Origin: Candidatus Ozemobacteraceae bacterium
Lineage (GTDB): Bacteria > Muiribacteriota > Ozemobacteria > Ozemobacterales > Ozemobacteraceae
Length of the DNA: 10,015 nt
Direction of reading: 5' to 3'
Assembly: GCA_017998915.1 (NCBI GenBank)
Contig: JAGOCE010000136.1
Location: 1-10,015 of the forward strand
Shown here: positions 2,325 to 10,015 of the stretch, piece after piece
Layout: each line of letters opens with the position of its first letter
How positions within the stretch are numbered: the first letter of the stretch is position 1
Position numbers and translations under genes: made by a program
The notes under the pieces: model-generated
Told to the model about the DNA's origin: nothing
Seen by the model: only the letters and a program-made list of their open reading frames with translations
Databases searched by the model: none

Positions 2325-2565
2325 TCTAGTAGAGGCTGGTTTGACAATCATGTCCCTGCGCTGTCCGTGATGATGCAGGTTTAATTGAGCCGACACCTGT
2401 ATCTAGAGGGAATCTGTCTTCAACCCCCGCTGAGATCCCCTTACGAACAGGATCACTCCTGTTACGAAGACCTCATTGTGAGGCTGAGCAGACAACCGTT
2501 TACCGCGAGGTTAGGGTTCAATTGTCCTTCACACGGCAGAGGCGGGGGCCTACCCGCACCTCAAC

Positions 2566-2643: not shown

Positions 2644-3747
2644 TTGTTCTGGGTGTTGCCTTTCGCCGTCCAGGTGGGTATATTTACCCCCATCATGAAG
2701 GCACGCCCTCTTCTCATCGCATCCGAAACGCTCAAAGCCGCCGATCTCATTGCTCCGCCCTTCGGACTCGAGCCCGAAGAGTTCATGCTGACCAGACTCG
2801 AGTCTCTGAATGTGATGGGGTTTGCGCGTTTCGCCGCCGTCGTGATTCATGAACCGCCTGCCGACCTGTTTCGCAGGTTGTCCCTCGGACTCCGCGACCG
2901 CCCTGATGCTGAAGCGCTCTGGTCACTTATTTCGCAGGCTCGATCCGTACCAGTTTACGTGCTGTCAGCCAAGATAGAGCGCCCCCCCACGGAACTTTCC
3001 GATCTCGGCATCGGTACAACCTTGCCCCAGCGACTTCGCGAACTGTGCGCCACGCCCGCAGCCTTCGCGCTTGACGGTTCCGGACCTTCGGTTTCCGCCG
3101 CTTCTTTGCTGACCGCCGATGATGTACGGGCCATGCATCTGAAGGGTGTGAAGACGCTCGACGAGAACACCCCGATGACCGACTGGGCCAGGGAAACGGC
3201 GACCGCGCTCGGCATCAGGCTCACGCCGGCAGCTTCCCGCCGCGTTCTGATTCCCGTCGAAGCCCGGGGCGTCAGGCACCTGGCGAGCTTCGGCGAGCTT
3301 TTGCACGGTTTCGCATCGTTCCCGCTCGCGCCGCTGTTCGTCGTTGCGGAGCCCCTCATGCCGGCGTTCAACGAGCTTTTCCCGTCGCTGCGCGGCAGGC
3401 TCGTCGCGCCAAGCATCCACTGGGAGAAACAGGGCGCCTTCACGGGTGAAATATCACTTGCTATGGCGCTCGATCTCGGGTGCGAGGGTGCGATCGTCCC
3501 CGATCTGCCGGCGTATGCTGAGCCGAAGCGATTCGCGCAGTTGTGCGCCGCCGCGGCTGGAAAGCAGTTTTCGCTTTATGTGCCCTCCCCCCTTGCCGCC
3601 CGGGATTGTTGTGCTATAATTGGCAACCGGATCTTCCGGCTCACGGATGGCCGGGGCCGCTCCGCATCGGAGCTGCCGAAAGACGGAGCCCTCATCATGA
3701 AGGGCTGCGAACTCGAGAAGATTGTCCAGGAAAGGAACAAGCCGTGA
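2644..3747 (+). CDS. Hypothetical protein whose C-terminal half carries a degenerate triosephosphate isomerase (TIM)-like segment. Possibly a decaying or pseudogenised TIM-family gene of the BMC locus. The start is uncertain (TTG 2644 or ATG 2695)
   Basis: Residues about 199-285 (nt 3238-3498) read RRVLIPVEARG...APLFVVAEPLMPAFNELFPSL...VAPSIHWEKQGAFTGEISLAMALDLGCEGAIV. This is co-linear with the TIM N-terminal region (KFFVGGNWKMNG...VVCAPP.AY...GAQN..K..GAFTGEIS..ML.D.G...V.LGHSERR). However, the catalytic N/K (GNWK) and H (GHSERR) positions are replaced (PVEA; PDLPAY) and the protein ends well short of a full barrel. GC3 is about 80% in the middle of the ORF but only about 65% at both ends, versus about 80% in neighbouring genes. 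A consensus extended -10 promoter lies inside the last 150 nt. The stop overlaps the pduL GTG start (GTGA). Confidence 0.4.
   Translation: MFWVLPFAVQVGIFTPIMKARPLLIASETLKAADLIAPPFGLEPEEFMLTRLESLNVMGFARFAAVVIHEPPADLFRRLSLGLRDRPDAEALWSLISQARSVPVYVLSAKIERPPTELSDLGIGTTLPQRLRELCATPAAFALDGSGPSVSAASLLTADDVRAMHLKGVKTLDENTPMTDWARETATALGIRLTPAASRRVLIPVEARGVRHLASFGELLHGFASFPLAPLFVVAEPLMPAFNELFPSLRGRLVAPSIHWEKQGAFTGEISLAMALDLGCEGAIVPDLPAYAEPKRFAQLCAAAAGKQFSLYVPSPLAARDCCAIIGNRIFRLTDGRGRSASELPKDGALIMKGCELEKIVQERNKP
3593..3620 (+). promoter_or_regulatory. Near-consensus sigma70 promoter, TTGCCG-16 bp-TGcTATAAT (extended -10). It probably drives the BMC operon from about 3627, giving an approximately 117-nt leader before pduL
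   Basis: Read directly: 3593-3598 ttgccg; 3612-3620 tgctataat (TGnTATAAT). The region is locally AT-enriched within otherwise 65% GC DNA. Confidence 0.5.
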
Positions 3748-4388
3748 TCGACGAAGCCAATGTCAAGACCATCGTAGCCGAAGTGCTCAAGCACATCGAT
3801 CTCCAGGAACGCATCCGCCCCGGAACCGTTCCAGCCGGCGTCAGCGGCCGCCACATCCACGTCTCCCAGGCCGATCTCGAAACCCTGTTCGGGGCCGGGT
3901 ATCAGCTCAAGGAAATGAAGAAGCTTTCCCAGCCCGGCCAGTTCGCGGCTGAAGAGTGCGTCATGCTCGTCGGCCGCAAGGGTGTCATCGAGAAGTGCCG
4001 CATCCTCGGGCCGGTCCGGCCGGCGACGCAGATCGAGATTTCCGGCACCGACAGCTTCACGCTCGGCGTGCCGATCGTCTATCGCGACTCGGGCGACACC
4101 AAGGGGACCCCCGGCGTCATCGTCGTCGGCCCAAAGGGCCACGTGGTATTGAAAGAAGGCATCATCGTCGCCAACCGCCACGTGCACCTCAGCACGAAGG
4201 AAGCCGAGAAGATGGGCCTGAAGGACATGGACCGGGTCACGGTCAAGACACAGGGTCCGCGCGCGATCGCGTTCCAGAACGTTCTGGTGCGCGTCAGCGA
4301 CAAGTTCGCCGCCGATTTCCACGTCGACAACGACGAGGGGAACGCCGCCGGCCTCAAAACGGGTGATATGGTCGAGATCGTCCGCTGA
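3744..4388 (+). CDS. pduL: PduL-type phosphotransacylase (phosphate acyltransferase, EutD/PduL family) with an N-terminal encapsulation-peptide-like amphipathic helix
   Basis: Two PduL repeat signatures: ...VSGRHIHVSQADLETLFG... and ...VANRHVHLSTKEAEKMGL.... The GTG start at 3744 is preceded by AGGAA (3731-3735) and overlaps the upstream TGA. The N-terminus, VIDEANVKTIVAEVLKHIDLQE, resembles BMC encapsulation peptides. Length of about 214 aa is typical for PduL. Confidence 0.88.
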   Translation: MIDEANVKTIVAEVLKHIDLQERIRPGTVPAGVSGRHIHVSQADLETLFGAGYQLKEMKKLSQPGQFAAEECVMLVGRKGVIEKCRILGPVRPATQIEISGTDSFTLGVPIVYRDSGDTKGTPGVIVVGPKGHVVLKEGIIVANRHVHLSTKEAEKMGLKDMDRVTVKTQGPRAIAFQNVLVRVSDKFAADFHVDNDEGNAAGLKTGDMVEIVR

Positions 4389-4466
4389 TCACGACCACCA
4401 CATAGGTTTTAGGTTTTTCGACACACGGTACACATTTCTGACAAGCCAAAATCTCAGGAGGACGTC

Positions 4467-4763
4467 ATGCAGGAAGCTCTGGGTATGATCGAAACCAAAG
4501 GTCTGACCGCTCTTATCGAAGCCACCGACGCGATGGTCAAAGCCGCCAACGTGAAGCTCGTCGGCTGGGAAAAAATCGGTTCCGGGTATGTGACCGCCTT
4601 CGTGCGCGGTGATGTCGCCGCCGTCAAAGCCGCCACCGACGCCGGTGCCGCCGCCGCCAAGAAGATCGGCGAGCTGATCTGCGTCCACGTGATTCCGCGG
4701 CCGCACGGCAACCTCGATGAGGTCATGCCGATCCGCGACAACACCCAGACCTCCAAGAAGTAA
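4467..4763 (+). CDS. BMC-H hexameric shell protein (Pfam00936; PduA/CcmK/EutM-like)
   Basis: The N-terminus, [33 protein letters not shown], is near-identical in pattern to PduA/EutM. AGGAGGA RBS at 4455-4461. 98 aa. Confidence 0.95.
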
Positions 4764-4783
4764 TCCGGGGAAATCGTCGAGTC

Positions 4784-5065
4784 ATGAATCTCGGTCGAGT
4801 CTGCGGAACCGTCGTCTGCACGCGAAAAGAAGAGCGGCTCAACGGCATGAAGTTTCTGATCGTCGAGGAACTGACGATCGAGCGCAAGCCGACGGGCCAC
4901 TTCGTCGTCGCCGTGGACGCGGTCAGCGCCGGAGCGGGCGAAACCGTACTGCTGGTCAGCGGCAGCTCGGCTCGCCTCACCGAGCGCACCCTGAACTGCC
5001 CGGTCGACGCAGCCGTCGCGGCCATCGTCGATTCGGTCGTGATGGACCACGAACGCACGACCTGA
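4784..5065 (+). CDS. BMC-P pentameric vertex protein (Pfam03319; EutN/PduN/CcmL-like)
   Basis: MNLGRVCGTVVCTRKEERLNGMKFLIVEEL... matches the EutN/PduN N-terminal pattern (M.IARVIGTVVST.K...L.G.KLL.V). 93 aa. Lies 20 bp downstream of the BMC-H gene. Confidence 0.9.
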   Translation: MNLGRVCGTVVCTRKEERLNGMKFLIVEELTIERKPTGHFVVAVDAVSAGAGETVLLVSGSSARLTERTLNCPVDAAVAAIVDSVVMDHERTT

Positions 5066-5092
5066 CCCCCGGCGGACTCCTTTGATCGATCT

Positions 5093-5129
5093 CCCGGCCC
5101 CGCGCATCGTTTTTCGCGCAGGGGCCGGG
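5093..5129 (+). other. Intercistronic G/C-rich stem-loop (CCGGCCCCGCGC / GCGCAGGGGCCGG) with a T-rich loop, between the BMC-P and aldehyde dehydrogenase genes. Possible partial terminator or RNA-processing element
   Basis: Imperfect inverted repeat read directly. No downstream U-tract. Confidence 0.3.
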
Positions 5130-5184
5130 GGTCGTGTGGTCCGCCGGCCATACAGACAGCAAGCCTCACGGCACGGGGGAACGA

Positions 5185-6603
5185 ATGTCCATTTCTCGTG
5201 ATGAGCTGGGCGTCATCGTCCAGGAAGTCCTCAGGAACCTGAAAGCATCCGGCACGGTCGCCACCGCCGTCACGCGGGCGGCGGAGCCTTCGGGCAAAGG
5301 CGTCTTTGAAAATATAGAAGACGCTATTAAGTCAGCCGTCGACGCCCAGAAGAAGCTCGTCGAGCTTCCGGTCGCCCTGCGCAAAAAGATGATCTCGAAC
5401 ATGCGCAGCCGCTGCCTCGCGAAGCTCGAGGAGCTCGCCCGCCTCGGCGTCGAGGACACCGGCTACGGCCGCGTCGATGACAAGCTCCAGAAAAACCGGC
5501 TCGCCATCACGAAGACACCCGGCATCGAAGATCTCCAGCCCGTGTCGTATTCGGGAGACGACGGTCTGACGCTCGTCGAACAGGCCCCTTACGGTGTCAT
5601 CGGGGCCATCACCCCCTCGACCAACCCGTCCGAGACGATCATCTGCAACTCGATCGGCATGATCGCGGCCGGCAACGCCGTCGTGTTCGGCCCCCACCCC
5701 GGCGCAGCGAAGATCAGCCGATTCACCGTCGAACTGCTGAACGAAGCCGTCATCGAGGCGGGCGGACCCGCCAATCTGATGACGATGGCCTCGAAGCCGA
5801 GCATCGAGAACGCGCAGATCCTGATGACCCACCCGTCGATCCGGCTGCTGGTCGTGACCGGCGGCCCCGCCGTGGTCGCCGCCGCCGCCAAGTGCGGCAA
5901 GAAATACATCGCCGCCGGTCCGGGCAACCCGCCCGCCGTCGTCGACGAGACGGCCGACCTGAAAAAAGCCGCGCGCGATATTATATCCGGCGCCACACTC
6001 GACAACAACGTGCTCTGCATCGCCGAGAAGGAAATCATCGTCGTCGAGTCGGTCGCCGAGGAGCTGAAGCGGCATCTGCGCAACAGCGGGGCCTACGAGG
6101 CGTCGGCGCGAGAGATCATCCAGCTCGAGAAGCTGGTGATCGACCCGAAGACAGGCGGCCCGAACCGCAAGTTCGTCGGCAAGAACGCCGGCTACATCCT
6201 CGAGCAGATCGGCGTGCGCGTCCCCGATGACATCCGCATGGTGTTGTGCGAAACGGGCCCCGACCACCCCTTCGTCGTCGAAGAGTTGTTGATGCCGGTC
6301 ATCCCGCTGGTGCGCGTGCGCGACGTGAACGCCGCCATCGATCTGGCCGTCAAGGTCGAGCACGGCAACAATCACACCGCCGTGATGCACAGCCGCAATA
6401 TCGACAACCTTCATCGCATGGCTGTTCGGTGCAACTGCTCGATCTTCGTGAAGAACGGCCCGAGCTATGCCGGCCTGGGAATGGGCGGCGAGGGCTATAC
6501 AACCTTCACGATCGCCTCCCCCACCGGCGAAGGCCTGACCAGCGCCCGCACCTTCACACGCCAGCGTCGCTGCGTCATCGTCGACAGCTTCCGAATCGTT
6601 TGA
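5185..6603 (+). CDS. CoA-acylating aldehyde dehydrogenase (PduP/EutE family) with an N-terminal encapsulation peptide
   Basis: The N-terminus, MSISRDELGVIVQEVLRNLKASG, is amphipathic and encapsulation-peptide-like, followed by a linker. The core motifs CNSIGMIAAGNAVVFGPHP and ...TLDNNVLCIAEKE (catalytic Cys) match EutE/PduP. RBS GGGGGAA before the ATG at 5185. ORF track start 5134 is in frame, but 5185 fits the RBS and the encapsulation-peptide pattern. Confidence 0.92.
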   Translation: MSISRDELGVIVQEVLRNLKASGTVATAVTRAAEPSGKGVFENIEDAIKSAVDAQKKLVELPVALRKKMISNMRSRCLAKLEELARLGVEDTGYGRVDDKLQKNRLAITKTPGIEDLQPVSYSGDDGLTLVEQAPYGVIGAITPSTNPSETIICNSIGMIAAGNAVVFGPHPGAAKISRFTVELLNEAVIEAGGPANLMTMASKPSIENAQILMTHPSIRLLVVTGGPAVVAAAAKCGKKYIAAGPGNPPAVVDETADLKKAARDIISGATLDNNVLCIAEKEIIVVESVAEELKRHLRNSGAYEASAREIIQLEKLVIDPKTGGPNRKFVGKNAGYILEQIGVRVPDDIRMVLCETGPDHPFVVEELLMPVIPLVRVRDVNAAIDLAVKVEHGNNHTAVMHSRNIDNLHRMAVRCNCSIFVKNGPSYAGLGMGGEGYTTFTIASPTGEGLTSARTFTRQRRCVIVDSFRIV

Positions 6604-6610
6604 GACAACA

Positions 6611-6762
6611 CACCACAGAGTCACAGAGACACAGAGGCCCTATTTCTCTCAATCCTGTAGCTCCGCGGTGAATATGATGAAAATCGCAAGATTTACAGCA
6701 GTTCGATCTTTGTATCCTTGTGGTGAATGATCTCTGTGTCTCTTTGCCTCTGTGGTAAACCA
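6611..6762. repeat. Long-range inverted repeat spanning the aldDH-pduS intergenic region: CCACAGAGTCACAGAGACACAGAG (6611-6634) pairs with CTCTGTGTCTCTTTGCCTCTGTGG (6738-6761). It encloses an AT-richer core with promoter-like TTTACA-15 bp-TGTATCCT
   Basis: 22 of 24 positions are complementary between the arms. The right arm contains the motif CTCTGTGTC-n7-CCTCTGTGGTAAA, which is repeated at 8859-8888. Confidence 0.5.
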
Positions 6763-6812
6763 GGGGAAACTCTCACGGACGATTATTGAATACTTCGAAA
6801 CGGATCAGGAAC

Positions 6813-8126
6813 ATGGGTGATATTGCAGTAGCGGAACTTGGGTTGGTGGGGTGCGGGGGCGCGGGATTTCCGACGCATGTGAAGCTTGCGGCGCAGAACG
6901 TCGATCACCTGATCGTGAACGCTGCCGAGTGCGAACCCCTCCTCCACAAGGACAAAGAGATCCTCAAGCACGCAACGGACGAGTTTTTCAAAGGCCTGAT
7001 CCGATCGATCGATCTCACGAGGGCAAAACAGGCGCATATCGCGATGAAGCGCAAATATGCCGATCTGCTTGAAACGCTCGAAAAGGCGATTCCCGACAAG
7101 CGGATATCGATGCTGCCCCTCGGCGACTTTTACCCGTCGGGCGATGAATACGAACTGGTATATGAAGCGAGCGGCCGGCTGATCCCGTTCGGCGGCATTC
7201 CGCTGCACGTCGGGTGCGTCGTCAGCAATGTCGAGACGCTGCTGAACCTCGGCCGCAACCGGCCGGTCACGACGAAGATCCTGAGCCTTGCGGGCGCGGT
7301 TCCCAACCCGATGACCGTCGAAGTGCCCGTCGGCATCACGGTGTTCGAGGCCCTTTCCCTTTCGGGCCTGAAATCGCTCGCCGGCCTGACGGTGATCGAC
7401 GGCGGCCCGATGATGGGGCGGCTCGTGCGCGATCCGCAGACCGATGTCGTCACGAAGACCACCGGCGGCCTGATTGCGCTTCCCAAAGATCATCCCCTGA
7501 TTCGACGGATGGTGACGCCAGAGGCCCACAACAGGCAGATCGCCCGTTCGGCCTGCGACCAGTGCACCGACTGTTCCGAGCTCTGCCCCCGTGCGCTTCT
7601 CGGGTATCCCATTCGGCCGCACAAAGCGATGAGGACAGCCCAGCTTGCCCCGTTCAACGACCAGAATTATTCGCGCGATTCAATCTTCTGCAGCGAGTGC
7701 GGACTCTGTTCGCTGTTTTCCTGCCCCGAAGGCCTGCCGCCGCGTGAGATGTGCCAGATGGCGAAGCGCCACCACCTGTCCCACGGTGTCAAGCCGACCG
7801 ACTGGAAGGACGCTCCGCAGGTTCACCCGATGCGAGGCCAGCGCCGCGTGGGAATCGAACGGCTGATCAAGCGTCTGGGCTTGCTCGATTACGACCACAA
7901 GGCTCCCTGGACAACCATCCAGACACGATTCGAGAGAGTCAGACTGCCGCTGAAGATGCATGTCGGGGTGCCGGCCGAGCCGGTCGTCCGCGTTGGCGAC
8001 ACCGTCAAGGTCGGCCAGTTGATCGGTGCCGTACCCGACAAGAAGCTCGGCGCGCCCGTGCATGCATCGATCAGCGGCCGCGTCACCAGCGTCGATTCCG
8101 GCGCCATCGTCATTTCCAGGGCATGA
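6813..8126 (+). CDS. PduS/RnfC-like Fe-S flavoprotein (NADH dehydrogenase 51-kDa-subunit-like domain plus two 4Fe-4S ferredoxin motifs). BMC-associated oxidoreductase
   Basis: GxGGAGFPTHVK motif (LVGCGGAGFPTHVKL). Two CxxCxxCxxxCP clusters (CDQCTDCSELCP; CSECGLCSLFSCP). AGGAA RBS before the ATG at 6813. The upstream TTG at 6786 is a less likely start. Confidence 0.88.
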   Translation: MGDIAVAELGLVGCGGAGFPTHVKLAAQNVDHLIVNAAECEPLLHKDKEILKHATDEFFKGLIRSIDLTRAKQAHIAMKRKYADLLETLEKAIPDKRISMLPLGDFYPSGDEYELVYEASGRLIPFGGIPLHVGCVVSNVETLLNLGRNRPVTTKILSLAGAVPNPMTVEVPVGITVFEALSLSGLKSLAGLTVIDGGPMMGRLVRDPQTDVVTKTTGGLIALPKDHPLIRRMVTPEAHNRQIARSACDQCTDCSELCPRALLGYPIRPHKAMRTAQLAPFNDQNYSRDSIFCSECGLCSLFSCPEGLPPREMCQMAKRHHLSHGVKPTDWKDAPQVHPMRGQRRVGIERLIKRLGLLDYDHKAPWTTIQTRFERVRLPLKMHVGVPAEPVVRVGDTVKVGQLIGAVPDKKLGAPVHASISGRVTSVDSGAIVISRA

Positions 8127-8159
8127 AGCAGCCCCTGAACCAGAACTGAGAGAACCGCC

Positions 8160-8717
8160 ATGAACATCTCGCAGAATGCCATCGGCCTCGTGGAACTGTC
8201 CAGTATCGCCATGGGCTACCAAACGACCGACGCCATGCTCAAGACCGCATCGGTCGAACTCGTCCTCTCACGCACCATCTGCCCGGGCAAGTTCATCGTC
8301 ATGGTCTGGGGCGATGTGGCGGCCGTCGAGGCGAGCGTCGCCGCAGGCGTTCGCGTCGGCCAGGGGTATCTCGTGAACGATCTCGTCATTCCCAACCTGC
8401 ATCCCCAGATCTACCCGGCGATGACGGCAACCAACCCGATTCCCGAGACGGATGCGCTGGGCGTCGTCGAGACGTTCGACGTCGTCTCGACGATCCTCGC
8501 GGCCGATGCATCGGCCAAGGCTGCCGACGTGCAGCTCGTCGAGATCCGCATTGCAATGGCGATCGGCGGCAAGGCGTTCTACACGATGACCGGCGACGTC
8601 GCCGCCGTCGAAGCCGCCGTGGCGTCAGGGCTGAACGTGCTCGAGGGCCGCGGCCAGGTCGTCTACAGCGTCGTCATCCCGCGCCCCCGCCCCGAACTCT
8701 TCCGCGAGTTCATTTGA
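8160..8717 (+). CDS. BMC-T tandem-domain shell protein (two Pfam00936 domains; PduT-like)
   Basis: Two BMC-domain repeats: IGLVELSSIAMGYQTTDAMLKTASVELV... and LGVVETFDVVSTILAADASAKAADVQLV.... 185 aa. Confidence 0.9.
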   Translation: MNISQNAIGLVELSSIAMGYQTTDAMLKTASVELVLSRTICPGKFIVMVWGDVAAVEASVAAGVRVGQGYLVNDLVIPNLHPQIYPAMTATNPIPETDALGVVETFDVVSTILAADASAKAADVQLVEIRIAMAIGGKAFYTMTGDVAAVEAAVASGLNVLEGRGQVVYSVVIPRPRPELFREFI

Positions 8718-8768
8718 GAGACACAACGGGAACAGCTTCAGCACAGAGAACACAAAGAGCACTGAGTT

Positions 8769-8888
8769 CTCACAGAGAACCGCTGTTTTCTGGTAATAGT
8801 CTTAATGCTGTATAATATAAACTTTACTTATACAAGCGGTTGTTTTTCTCTGTGAAACCTCTGTGTCCATTGTGTCCTCTGTGGTAAA
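8769..8888. repeat. Second copy of the intergenic element (BMC-T to rpiB spacer): CACAGAG repeats after the stop, an AT-rich core containing TGTATAAT, and the motif CTCTGTGTC-n10-CCTCTGTGGTAAA at 8859-8888
   Basis: The motif is shared with 6731-6759. Partial inverted complementarity exists between CACAGAGAACCGCT (8771-8784) and AGCGGTTGTTTTTCTCTGTG (8835-8854). Confidence 0.45.
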
Positions 8889-8926
8889 GTTTTTGGTGCT
8901 CGAAATTGCATTTGATGGAGATGGGT

Positions 8927-9391
8927 ATGCCGAAGATCGTGATTGGGGCTGATCATGGCGGGTTTCCGCTCAAGGAGGAGCTGAAGAAGCACCTGGCTAC
9001 GGCCGGCCACACGGTCGAGGACGTCGGCGCCTTTTCGACCGATCCGGTCGATTATCCCGATATCGCCTGGCTCGTGGCCAACGCGGTCGCGATGAATCCG
9101 CACACGCTCGGCATCGTCATCGACGGGGCGGGCATCGGCTCCTGCATGGCCGCGAACAAGGTCCCCGGCGTGCGGGCTGCCTGCTGCAACGATCTCTACA
9201 CCGCGCGCAACAGCCGCGAGCACAATCACGCGAACTTGCTCACCCTGGGCAGCATGGTGATCGGCCCCGGCTTGATGAAGCAGATCGTCGACCTCTGGAT
9301 CTCCACCCAGCCCGCTCCCGGCCGCCACGCCGCCCGCGTCGCCAAGATCACGCGCCTCGAGTCGCTGGGTGCACCGCCTCAGAAGGTATAA
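8927..9391 (+). CDS. rpiB: Sugar-phosphate isomerase of the RpiB/LacAB family (ribose-5-phosphate isomerase B-like)
   Basis: MPKIVIGADHGGFPLKEEL...GIVIDGAGIGSCMAANKVPGVRAACC...REHNHANLLTLGS...GRHAARV is co-linear with E. coli RpiB (KIAFGCDHVGF...GILICGTGVGISIAANKF.GIRA..C...RQHNDTNVLAFG...GGRHQQRV). GGAG RBS before the ATG at 8927. Confidence 0.88.
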   Translation: MPKIVIGADHGGFPLKEELKKHLATAGHTVEDVGAFSTDPVDYPDIAWLVANAVAMNPHTLGIVIDGAGIGSCMAANKVPGVRAACCNDLYTARNSREHNHANLLTLGSMVIGPGLMKQIVDLWISTQPAPGRHAARVAKITRLESLGAPPQKV

Positions 9392-9484
9392 CTCCTTCCA
9401 ATTTCCTTTTGTGAACAGACTTTCCAGGCGAATTTTCTACGTCTCGGGGAAGAGGTTGCATGAAATGTGGTATCATTTCTTGTG

Positions 9485-9742
9485 ATGCCTACCGTTCTCA
9501 TGATTTACGGCTGGAGATTCTTTTTCTACGCGAACGAGCGCAATGAGCCTATTCATATTCATTGCAAAAGCGGAGACAAGGAATGCAAATACTGGCTCGA
9601 CTGCGACGATTTTGACGCAATTGAAGCCTATTCGTACAATATGAGCCCTTCAGACAAGAGGCTCGTCAAGAAGCTGATTTTCGAATATTTCGAACTCATC
9701 GAGAATTCATGGAAAGAATTTCAAGAGAGAAAGTCTTTATGA
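9485..9742 (+). CDS. DUF4160-family small protein (about 85 aa) in a low-GC island. Function unknown
   Basis: MPTVLMIYGWRFFFYANERNEPIHIHCKSGDKECKYWL matches the DUF4160 hallmark (MPT...GyRFfFYsNE.nEP.HiHv...g.eaKfWL). Local GC is about 42% versus about 65% upstream. Its stop overlaps the next gene start (ATGA). Confidence 0.78.
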   Translation: MPTVLMIYGWRFFFYANERNEPIHIHCKSGDKECKYWLDCDDFDAIEAYSYNMSPSDKRLVKKLIFEYFELIENSWKEFQERKSL

Positions 9743-9999
9743 ATAAGAGTCACATAATCCAGGATGTTCGTTTCACGAACGGAACCATGCAGATCATGAT
9801 CGATGGAAAACCGTATGAGTTCAAGCTCAATGCTGTTTCTTCAAAATTATCTGAAGCCACCGTTGAGCAAAGAAATGCCTTTGAAGTTTCACCTTCGGGT
9901 TATGGCATCCACTGGCCGCTGGTCGATGAAGATCTTTCGATCGACGGGTTATTGAATATTTCCCATGCGCTTCCGGTAAAAAAGACGAAAGCGGCATGA
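9739..9999 (+). CDS. DUF2442-family small protein (about 86 aa), translationally coupled to the DUF4160 gene
   Basis: ...MIDGKPYEFKLNAVSSKL...GYGIHWPLVDEDLSIDGLL matches the DUF2442 C-terminal pattern (I.WP..DeDls.d.L). Its ATG at 9739 overlaps the upstream TGA, with a purine-rich RBS, GAGAGAAAG, before it. The alternative in-frame start at 9709 lies inside the upstream gene. Confidence 0.75.
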   Translation: MNKSHIIQDVRFTNGTMQIMIDGKPYEFKLNAVSSKLSEATVEQRNAFEVSPSGYGIHWPLVDEDLSIDGLLNISHALPVKKTKAA

Positions 10000-10015
10000 A
10001 TCAAGGAGCGAAATA
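9996..10015 (+). CDS. 5' end of a third small gene (MNQGAK...), translationally coupled by a second ATGA overlap. Runs off the window
   Basis: The ATG at 9996 overlaps the TGA at 9997-9999. Only 6 codons are visible. Confidence 0.3.

Follow-up and report, generated by a model that had tools for sequence, protein, structure and literature searches.

Gene content and conservation of the operon

The window analyzed here is a 10,015-nucleotide stretch of DNA from a Candidatus Ozemobacteraceae bacterium. An initial annotation of this DNA had placed a BMC locus at positions 3744 to 9391, and all the genes that it named were recovered from the + strand, at those positions or close by, with strong profile matches. 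The operon comprises nine genes, which encode, in order, a protein composed of a pseudo-receiver (pseudo-REC), a BMC module and a dead TIM domain, followed by PduL, BMC-H, BMC-P, AldDH, PduS (MNdh), PduT, RpiB (Asp66), and DeoB. An identical nine-gene order was found in ~30 Riflebacteria/Ozemobacteraceae loci, wherever the contig covers those genes. Across these orthologous loci, AldDH identity is 69 to 98%, and the source MAGs are named Ca. Ozemobacteraceae, Riflebacteria, or Rifleibacterium. The complete Ozemobacteraceae genome OZ223236.1 also carries the operon. Unrelated genes bound the operon in relatives. None of the nine ORFs is disrupted in ~30 genomes, and dN/dS was 0.03 to 0.17 across every gene tested; the first gene (0.17) and rpiB (~0.1) are under purifying selection.

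The aldehyde-oxidizing core and the Fe-S flavoprotein named in the initial annotation were both recovered. The PduL-type phosphotransacylase (PTAC; 3744 to 4388, + strand) matches PF06130 (250.7 bits) and NF011652 (257.5 bits); the latter match begins at residue 29, so a 28-residue extension precedes it, and the protein carries the N-terminal encapsulation peptide (EP) VIDEANVKTIVAEVLKHIDLQ, the helix of which is kept in 28 orthologs. The CoA-acylating aldehyde dehydrogenase of the EutE/PduP class (AldDH; 5185 to 6603, + strand; NF011927, 684.7 bits) likewise has an N-terminal EP, MSISRDELGVIVQEVLRNLK, which is followed by an Ala/Pro/Gly linker; among 30 orthologs, the amphipathic helix of this peptide is conserved and the linker is variable. 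The PduS-type Fe-S flavoprotein (MNdh, metabolosome NADH dehydrogenase; 437 aa; 6813 to 8126, + strand, with the start position taken from the called gene in related locus L002) contains PF01512 (129.6 bits), SLBB, Fer4_17, and RnfC_N domains. RnfC_N is C-terminal in this protein, and the four-domain set agrees with MNdh.

The shell genes include a single BMC-H hexamer gene (4467 to 4763, + strand; PF00936, 103 bits), which is also single copy in relatives and is preceded by AGGAGG, a strong ribosome-binding site. One BMC-P pentamer (vertex) protein is encoded at 4784 to 5065 (+ strand; PF03319, 101.7 bits), as is the case for the main locus of relatives. The third shell protein is a PduT-type tandem BMC-T (BMC-T^SE; 8160 to 8717, + strand; PF00936 twice, 152 bits). 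Full-length alignment with the PduT structures 3N79 and 3PAC revealed that its Cys41 is the counterpart of PduT Cys38, a ligand of the pore [4Fe-4S] center, and the TICPGKF motif is conserved. The proposal of a complete shell set holds only in that H, P, and T are each represented once; SPU compartments are described with three BMC-P paralogs, and one is present here; the SPU7 entry in Supplementary Data 2 of Sutter et al. (2021) assigns the other two (grey and orange clades) to a satellite locus. A second tandem-BMC gene (BMC-T^dp) was absent within 10 kb on either side of any ortholog. The color clades expected of SPU7 shell proteins (green-clade BMC-P; darkGreyBlue BMC-T^s) are predicted here from synteny with typed orthologs.

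The operon ends with two sugar-phosphate genes. At 8927 to 9391 (+ strand), where an RpiB/LacAB isomerase had been annotated, lies an SPU-type RpiB of 154 aa (TIGR01120, 149.5 bits against a cutoff of 138.65) without a terminal extension. Alignment to 3HE8 and 1NN4 revealed that Asp66 replaces the catalytic Cys (GIVIDGAG versus GIVICGTG) and that His99 is kept. Asp66 and REHN are present in 31 of the 32 RpiBs of related loci, the motif being unreadable in the remaining one. The Cys66-to-Asp change with His99 kept is the hallmark that Dwyer, Sutter & Kerfeld (2024, Commun Biol 7:1562) describe for every SPU RPI, and the SPU6 RPI had negligible activity on R5P yet was found in complex with DERA (Dwyer et al. 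2024). RpiB of the window, which carries this SPU-wide change, is likely inactive as a ribose-5-P isomerase and is probably a non-isomerizing DERA partner. The ninth and last gene is deoB (phosphopentomutase), of which only the first base (10015, + strand) falls in the window. The remainder was taken from the near-identical contig L001 (99.6% identity to window positions 8061 to 10015), where DeoB (L001:1955-3106) matches NF003766 with 507 bits (cutoff, 256); the gene follows rpiB in every related locus reaching that far.

Three further elements in the window are insertions. A MITE-like hairpin element at the AldDH/PduS junction (6612 to 6756) has 25-nt terminal inverted repeats that are 92% complementary and a predicted RNA fold of -55.1 kcal/mol (z, -3.8), in a junction that spans 11 to 94 nt in relatives L003 to L006; it is not a functional part of the system. 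A second element of this kind (8731 to 8894), with 49-nt inverted arms and a fold of -59.2 kcal/mol (z, -4.7), separates BMC-T from RpiB, two genes that overlap or abut in L004 to L007. The RpiB/DeoB junction contains a DUF4160/DUF2442 gene pair (9467 to 9999, + strand; PF13711 and PF10387) with a GC content of 0.52 versus ~0.6 elsewhere; this insertion is specific to the window lineage, being present in the near-identical contig L001, in L012 and L014, and as a remnant in L003, and it is absent from the other relatives.

The first gene and the upstream RNA

The locus was initially described as beginning with a TIM-like ORF. This ORF is real, but it lies just outside the start given for the locus (2695 to 3747, + strand; its stop overlaps the pduL start in GTGA), and it does not encode a functional TPI. 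Its 350-aa product is a three-domain protein in which the Pfam TIM model matches only 36 residues. Residues 1 to 126 form a CheY-like pseudo-receiver, residues ~136 to 177 resemble a ~45-aa BMC module that is common to EutQ (at its N terminus), PduM, and eut_hyp (both at the C terminus), and residues ~181 to 350 form a degenerate, truncated TIM fold that lacks catalytic residues and the phosphate-binding C-terminal half. A triosephosphate isomerase (pfam00121) has Asn11/Lys13, His95 (GHSERR), Glu165 (AYEPVWAIGTG), and a full (beta/alpha)8 barrel, and we rejected this assignment. A functional response-regulator receiver was likewise rejected for residues 1 to 126, which do not show the receiver set of an acidic pair following beta1, a phospho-acceptor Asp closing beta3, and a Lys closing beta5. 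We found no described counterpart of this three-domain architecture.

A 6S-like RNA gene lies just upstream of the operon and occupies the directly upstream position in 22 genomes. Together with the hairpin elements and the DUF4160/DUF2442 pair, this RNA and the domain make-up of the first gene are new details of the locus. One may tentatively suppose, although we consider it somewhat doubtful, that in Riflebacteria SPU7 operons the gene that SPU surveys list as a "TPI" encodes a dedicated non-catalytic organizer made of a pseudo-receiver, a ~45-aa BMC-association module, and a dead half-TIM, that the core is built around two enzyme fossils, this protein and the dead RpiB, and that the 6S-like RNA gene and the operon may be coupled in transcription. 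If true, this coupling would link a DNA-scavenging organelle to stationary-phase control.

Locus type and proposed pathway

The SPU-type reading of the initial annotation was supported and could be narrowed to SPU7 by the gene order shared with a catalogued locus. Locus L019, the CG2_30_54_10 contig, has the same gene order as the window; the BMC catalogue published by Sutter et al. (2021, Nat Commun 12:3809) types the BMC-T of this contig, AUK22_04385, as "SPU7 (main)", and P0012, a homolog of the TIM-like gene, is AUK22_04355, six genes upstream of it. The window has the SPU7 main-locus content, namely AldDH and PTAC with N-terminal EPs, pfam02502, a PduS/PduT pair, one BMC-H, and one BMC-P, and the hosts are Riflebacteria/Ozemobacter. 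SPU7 is an already catalogued locus type and an ordinary one for this lineage. Its proposed role is to degrade deoxyribose phosphate from scavenged DNA.

The signature enzyme had been expected either outside the window or among its unassigned ORFs. None of those ORFs encodes it, and DERA is absent from both strands of the window. Three unvalidated DERA probes and a Schiff-base motif regular expression also found no DERA in the 10 kb on either side of AldDH across 91 loci, among them the ~30 orthologs. The SPU7 entry in Supplementary Data 2 of Sutter et al. (2021) states that DERA lies in a satellite locus with two further BMC-P genes, and the satellite placement given here is that catalogue statement.

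We conclude with considerable confidence that this is the SPU7-type BMC main operon of a Riflebacteria (Ozemobacteraceae) bacterium, which would serve a DERA-based deoxyribose-phosphate pathway with enzyme-derived core proteins. The pathway part draws on characterized families and the published SPU model, and it is a model because neither an SPU7 compartment nor an entire compartment of another SPU subtype has yet been isolated or studied in vivo. Nucleoside phosphorolysis would yield deoxyribose 1-phosphate, which cytosolic DeoB would convert to deoxyribose 5-phosphate (Dr5P) for entry into the shell. There, as proposed for SPU6, Dr5P would be cleaved to G3P and acetaldehyde, which EP-tagged AldDH would capture as acetyl-CoA with formation of NADH. 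EP-tagged PduL would regenerate CoA, with acetyl-phosphate exiting to yield ATP, while the PduS-type flavoprotein would regenerate NAD+ and export electrons via the [4Fe-4S] center in the PduT pore. Judging from their lost catalytic residues and their conservation, RpiB and the dead-TIM protein are most likely non-catalytic scaffolds, that is, enzyme-derived core-organizing or adaptor proteins. An adaptor role is suggested because the SPU6 RPI binds DERA and the first gene shares its module with the BMC accessory proteins EutQ, PduM, and eut_hyp.

The missing DERA could instead mean that the operon is self-sufficient, with RpiB (Asp66) and/or the TIM-like protein taking part in a novel reaction that releases the aldehyde from ribose-, ribulose-, or some other pentose-phosphate and with DeoB feeding ribose 5-phosphate. 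Such a DERA-independent compartment would fit the lack of DERA in the 10 kb around AldDH at ~30 orthologous loci, the purifying selection on both proteins, and a compact, strictly conserved operon ending in DeoB, which also uses ribose phosphates; moreover, Dwyer et al. (2024, Commun Biol 7:1562) left open that SPU RPIs might act on rare sugar phosphates. We consider it improbable, however, since the TIM-like protein retains no TIM catalytic residue and no phosphate-binding half, activity was negligible in an SPU RPI that also has Asp66, isomerases yield no free aldehyde for a CoA-acylating AldDH, and a satellite DERA is reported in the catalogue's SPU7 entry.

There is a very slim chance that the locus belongs to one of the other established metabolosome types (PDU, EUT, GRM, or PVM-like), with its signature enzyme elsewhere and RpiB and DeoB as unrelated neighbors. 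AldDH, PduL, PduS/PduT, H, and P are generic to many metabolosomes, and the nearest non-Riflebacteria AldDHs found (51 to 61% identity) belong to Firmicutes/Proteobacteria BMC loci without RpiB. Yet RpiB overlaps or abuts BMC-T and is followed by DeoB in every relative reaching that far, it carries the SPU-specific Asp66, and the catalogue's SPU7 entry includes these loci. As initially annotated, diol dehydratase, EutBC, and glycyl-radical enzyme are absent from both strands of the window; the flanks of near-identical and orthologous contigs, which had been named as the place to look for contrary evidence, also contain none of these enzymes or DERA. The other test named there, placement of the shell proteins in PDU, EUT, or GRM clades, cannot discriminate, since the clade of a shell protein does not follow the type of the BMC. 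Slimmer still is the chance of a decaying or inactive locus, despite the catalytic residues lost in TIM and RpiB and the two hairpins and DUF4160/DUF2442 insertion that interrupt the operon specifically in the window lineage: the catalytic residues were lost long ago and throughout the families rather than recently, every insertion is intergenic, and the intact ORFs and low dN/dS described above argue against decay.

Comparison with known systems

The SPU7 entry in Supplementary Data 2 of Sutter et al. (2021) covers 8 loci from Cloacimonetes, Riflebacteria, Wallbacteria, and Ca. Ozemobacter sibiricus. The window shares with it the EP-bearing AldDH and PTAC, pfam02502, PduS/PduT with the pore cysteine, one BMC-H and one BMC-P, the lack of BMC-T^dp and of DERA in the main locus, and the lineage, with CG2_30_54_10 as a direct ortholog. 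No essential difference from this entry was found; DeoB as the end gene, the nature of the first gene, and the upstream 6S-like RNA are not mentioned in it, and the window lineage adds the intergenic hairpins and the DUF4160/DUF2442 insertion.

The initial statement that no SPU member has been characterized is outdated, as DERA and RPI of SPU6 from Chloroflexi bacterium GWB2_54_36, the only characterized SPU enzymes, were purified and assayed (Dwyer et al. 2024, Commun Biol 7:1562). SPU6 shares the acylating AldDH, the Cys66-to-Asp RPI, and the proposed pathway. In SPU6, however, DERA and RPI are adjacent in the main locus and BMC-T^dp is present, whereas DERA is elsewhere for the window operon. 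Its AldDH has a C-terminal EP and its RPI an N-terminal EP with a ~75-residue linker, in contrast to the unextended RPI of the window, and it lacks the PTAC and PduS that the window operon has alongside PduT.

The MNdh/BMC-T^SE electron-export module (Sutter et al. 2024, PMC11275729) is matched by a PduS homolog with PF01512, SLBB, two [4Fe-4S], and RnfC_N in the same permutation relative to RnfC, by the adjacent BMC-T with the PduT Cys38 equivalent, and by an AldDH in a locus that lacks alcohol dehydrogenase; electron export by the window protein is predicted. Enzyme-derived BMC scaffolds, such as the gamma-carbonic-anhydrase domain of CcmM, inactive EP-bearing GRM AldDH copies, and the SPU RPI, likewise combine a conserved fold, lost catalytic residues, and purifying selection in a BMC operon, whereas for the dead-TIM protein we only infer a scaffold role. 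SPU1/SPU4 loci have PTAC and a genuine TPI (pfam00121), some with N-terminal EPs, and the same TIM-PTAC-BMC-H operon head, which also occurs with an intact TIM in L008. The TIM of SPU1/SPU4 carries the same ~45-aa module at its N terminus and retains NWKMN, GHSERR, and AYEPVWAIGTG, whereas the window protein, which is shortened and has acquired a pseudo-receiver, has lost all three motifs.

Operon content and assignment to SPU7

The operon lies on the forward strand and begins with a TIM-like ORF, whose true start is at position 2695 and whose stop at 3747 overlaps the GTG start of PduL by 4 nt. PduL, the phosphotransacylase (PTAC; 3744-4388; PF06130, 250.7 bits), is followed by BMC-H (4467-4763), BMC-P (4784-5065), the CoA-acylating aldehyde dehydrogenase (AldDH; 5185-6603; NF011927, 684.7 bits), a PduS/RnfC-like flavoprotein (6813-8126; PF01512, SLBB, Fer4_17, and RnfC_N), a tandem BMC-T (8160-8717), and RpiB (8927-9391; TIGR01120, 149.5 bits against a cutoff of 138.65), whose true start is downstream of that of a 161-aa ORF. 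Every gene named in the initial annotation was recovered on this strand with a strong profile match, the three shell genes included. A scan of all six frames of the window with probes for every family found one copy each of BMC-H, BMC-P, and BMC-T and no deoxyribose-5-phosphate aldolase (DERA). No alcohol dehydrogenase is encoded in the operon.

Alignment of orthologs revealed conserved amphipathic N-terminal helices, followed by a variable linker, in AldDH and PduL (MSxSR[DE]ELxxIVQEVLKxL and M(I)DExxVKxIVAEVLKHIDLQ); judged by sequence, these are textbook encapsulation peptides (EPs). The BMC-T can be aligned with PduT over its whole length, placing Cys41 at PduT Cys38, the ligand of the pore [4Fe-4S] cluster. 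The PduS homolog has all four domains of the PduS-type flavoprotein MNdh, with RnfC_N C-terminal. The role assigned to the PduS/PduT pair is NAD+ regeneration, with electrons exported through the shell (Sutter et al. 2024, PMC11275729).

To compare gene order, we used five contigs carrying TIM-like homologs and roughly 25 species-representative genomes that an AldDH search returned (69-98% identity). The order TIM-like, PTAC, BMC-H, BMC-P, AldDH, PduS, BMC-T, RpiB, DeoB was constant wherever the contig reaches, and in four relatives (L004-L007) the start of RpiB either overlaps the BMC-T stop or directly adjoins it. The operon is also present at ~2.06 Mb in a complete Ozemobacteraceae chromosome, OZ223236.1. 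The near-identical contig L001 (99.6% identical to window positions 8061-10015) places the first base of deoB at the last base of the window (507 bits on phosphopentomutase NF003766; cutoff, 256). Downstream of deoB are unrelated minus-strand CarboxypepD_reg genes; on its upstream side, the operon is preceded by uvrB and by two minus-strand genes that carry no annotation. These two, conserved between uvrB and a 6S-like RNA, encode a 231-aa protein whose N terminus has a hydrophobic segment (454-1149) and a 381-aa multi-pass membrane protein (1162-2307), neither with a Pfam or NCBIfam match. The pair is kept in L003, a relative, but L005, another, has only the smaller gene, which makes a connection with the operon questionable.

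In the SPU7 entry of Sutter et al. 2021 (PMC8217296, Suppl. Data 2), the listed hosts are Cloacimonetes, Riflebacteria, Wallbacteria, and Ca. Ozemobacter sibiricus. The main locus is described there as AldDh, PTAC, pfam02502, and a PduS/T pair, with N-terminal EPs on AldDh and PTAC, and the satellite as pfam01791 (DERA) with grey and orange BMC-P genes (PMC8217296). The architecture described in this entry is that of the window. In the tree from the same work, AUK22_04385 of bacterium CG2_30_54_10 is labelled an "SPU7 (main)" BMC-T (PMC8217296). The TIM-like homolog P0012 is AUK22_04355 of that record, whose contig (L019) has the gene order of the window. Since this contig is typed and shares the order, the link to SPU7 is direct. 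The initial proposal of an SPU-like metabolosome is thus borne out and narrowed by catalogue description and orthology: the window holds the main locus of the already catalogued SPU7 system.

The first gene and its module

The first gene (2695-3747) matches Pfam TIM over residues 250-285 only; its N-terminal domain and the following module of ~45 aa are both unrecognised by Pfam. An exhaustive profile search recovered about 33 representatives of ~350 aa, beyond which scores fall from 75 bits to 44 bits, where the matches are ordinary TIMs aligned over TIM residues ~43-99 only. Homologs were found in Ca. Ozemobacteraceae/Riflebacteria only. One contig labelled Candidatus Methylomirabilis sp. 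(L035, DYKG01000012.1) carries a complete operon of the Riflebacteria type, with both the dead-TIM gene and the 6S-like RNA (AldDH, 72% identical); it is probably mis-binned rather than a transfer.

The module, located between the two domains, is helix-strand-helix-strand (LTADDVR..H..G...L....PMTDWARETA..LG). It also occurs at the N terminus of fully catalytic TIMs (P0063, P0070, and P0133), one of these three heading a TIM-PTAC-BMC-H operon (L008), and at the C terminus of Asp66-type RpiBs in L009 and L011, after an EP-like helix. It further matches the N terminus of EutQ, the C terminus of eut_hyp (TIGR02536; 38.5 bits), and, weakly, the C terminus of PduM. In other bacteria (L009:10001-11730, L010, and L011:10001-11649), a catalytically intact TIM with the module at its N terminus is paired, in two-gene loci far from any shell gene, with an Asp66 RpiB that has an EP-like helix and the module at its C terminus. 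These pairs look like BMC satellite loci, in which the module appears to move between termini and between enzymes.

The first gene had a dN/dS of 0.17 in all three comparisons (its three domains, 0.07-0.26; the enzymes, 0.03-0.11). Its ORF is intact in 27 genomes, and with this dN/dS we rejected a decaying pseudogene. The initial annotation had the locus begin with a TIM-like ORF; the sequence shows that this ORF is not a TPI. We infer that its product has no catalytic role and serves as an organiser or adaptor, having evolved from a BMC TPI that bore the module. Published SPU schemes place a GAP-to-DHAP step inside the shell; since this "TPI" cannot be one, those flux schemes need correction for the SPU7 subtype. 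The recurrent module is a candidate cargo/shell adaptor, of possible use in BMC engineering.

A 6S-like RNA and inserted elements

Co-oriented with the operon and 143 nt before the first gene is a probable 6S/SsrS-like RNA gene (2350-2552, forward strand). Its match to Rfam RF00013 is full-length but sub-threshold (37.1 bits against a gathering score of 46.4; E, 1e-4), and matches recur at syntenic sites in L004:9711-9910, L005:9650-9849, and L025:7319-7521 (37-39 bits overall, against 46.4). By nhmmer it is present, in synteny, in 22 Riflebacteria loci and, weakly, before the intact-TIM operon of L008; compensatory changes occur at 19 of the 59 predicted pairs across 18 sequences. Rfam miRNA matches were dismissed as hairpin look-alikes.

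Sigma-70-like sites at 2296-2324, 2656-2684, and 3593-3620 are consensus matches only. The last, the best in the region (forward strand; TTGCCG-16-TATAAT with extended TG, 10/12), falls within the 3' end of the first gene, ~125 nt upstream of where PduL starts, and might drive the shell and enzyme genes as an internal promoter. Since terminator-like sites were no commoner than in shuffled sequence (7 versus 7.0), we claim no operon substructure.

Two related elements of ~145-165 nt, which fold into very stable hairpins, occupy the AldDH-PduS junction (6612-6756; fold, -55 kcal/mol; z, -3.8) and the BMC-T-RpiB junction (8731-8894; -59 kcal/mol; z, -4.7). Both have an AT-rich core and terminal inverted repeats (TIRs) of CACAGAG-like units (ACCACAGAG...CTCTGTGGT); TIR-like fragments occur in L012, L013, L014, and L052. 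The elements, possibly of MITE or REP type, could influence how the mRNA is processed. An overlapping DUF4160/DUF2442 pair (9467-9742 and 9709-9999; local GC, 0.52), possibly a small toxin-antitoxin-like module, lies between RpiB and DeoB in the window lineage only (L001, L012, and L014; L003 keeps a remnant of DUF2442). All of these insertions sit at intergenic junctions that are tight in relatives (0-94 nt in L004-L007 for the two hairpin junctions).

The deoxyribose-phosphate model and known systems

At the catalytic Cys position of 3HE8 and 1NN4, the window RpiB aligns an Asp (Asp66) and retains His99. Both residues are present in 31 of 32 RpiBs of related loci, the motif being unreadable in the remaining one. 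Cys66-to-Asp is reported for all SPU RPIs, and a tested SPU RPI had negligible R5P isomerase activity (PMC11585597). The SPU6 RPI bears a terminal extension, whereas the window RpiB has none.

Combining the observed gene content, order, and residue states with characterised families and the SPU model, we infer a pathway in which DeoB would convert Dr1P to Dr5P in the cytosol and a satellite-encoded DERA would cleave Dr5P to G3P and acetaldehyde inside the shell. AldDH would then yield acetyl-CoA and NADH, and PduL acetyl-P and CoA, while MNdh would reoxidise NADH to NAD+, with electrons leaving through PduT. DeoB as the last gene of the operon lends genetic backing to this model.

The evidence contradicts all three rival explanations. 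Chemistry independent of DERA is improbable, even though three unvalidated DERA probes and a [VIL]K[TA]S[TS]G regex gave zero matches among the ORFs of all 91 loci screened, and the relatives' loci have no DERA within 10 kb. When the window RpiB served as the query, to look for DERAs fused or adjacent to an RPI, the best 120 matches were single-domain RPIs only, and P0246, the closest non-Riflebacteria RpiB among those looked up, stands alone with no BMC genes nearby. Asking whether DERA shares the tag, a module-only profile search gave 73 candidates and one 50-aa match. Since neither DERA nor the two extra BMC-P were seen, the satellite element of the model rests on the catalogue, which agrees with the initial suggestion that the signature enzyme may be encoded beyond the window. 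The TIM-like ORF was rejected as the missing aldolase: its homology is to TIM rather than to class I aldolases, and its barrel is without any conserved Lys, His, or Glu.

Another metabolosome type, with RpiB and DeoB as unrelated neighbours, is highly unlikely: within 10 kb, the relatives' loci encode neither a diol dehydratase nor EutBC nor a glycyl-radical enzyme, so the absence reported for the window extends to the flanks. A decaying locus is the least credible of the three, given the purifying selection on every gene tested (dN/dS, 0.03-0.17).

The initial statement that every SPU member is experimentally uncharacterised no longer holds, as the SPU6 DERA, active on Dr5P, and RPI were purified and formed a complex (Dwyer, Sutter & Kerfeld 2024, PMC11585597). 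SPU7 itself is uncharacterised, and an order conserved in about 30 related loci offers a clean minimal inventory of single H, P, and T shell proteins, AldDH and PTAC with their EPs, MNdh, DeoB, a dead RPI, and a dead-TIM adaptor. The locus is not new in kind: SPU7 was catalogued from Riflebacteria/Ozemobacter in 2021, and 2024 brought the SPU pathway model together with the first enzymology. What remains novel is limited to the dead-TIM adaptor, the shared module, and the synteny of the 6S-like RNA.
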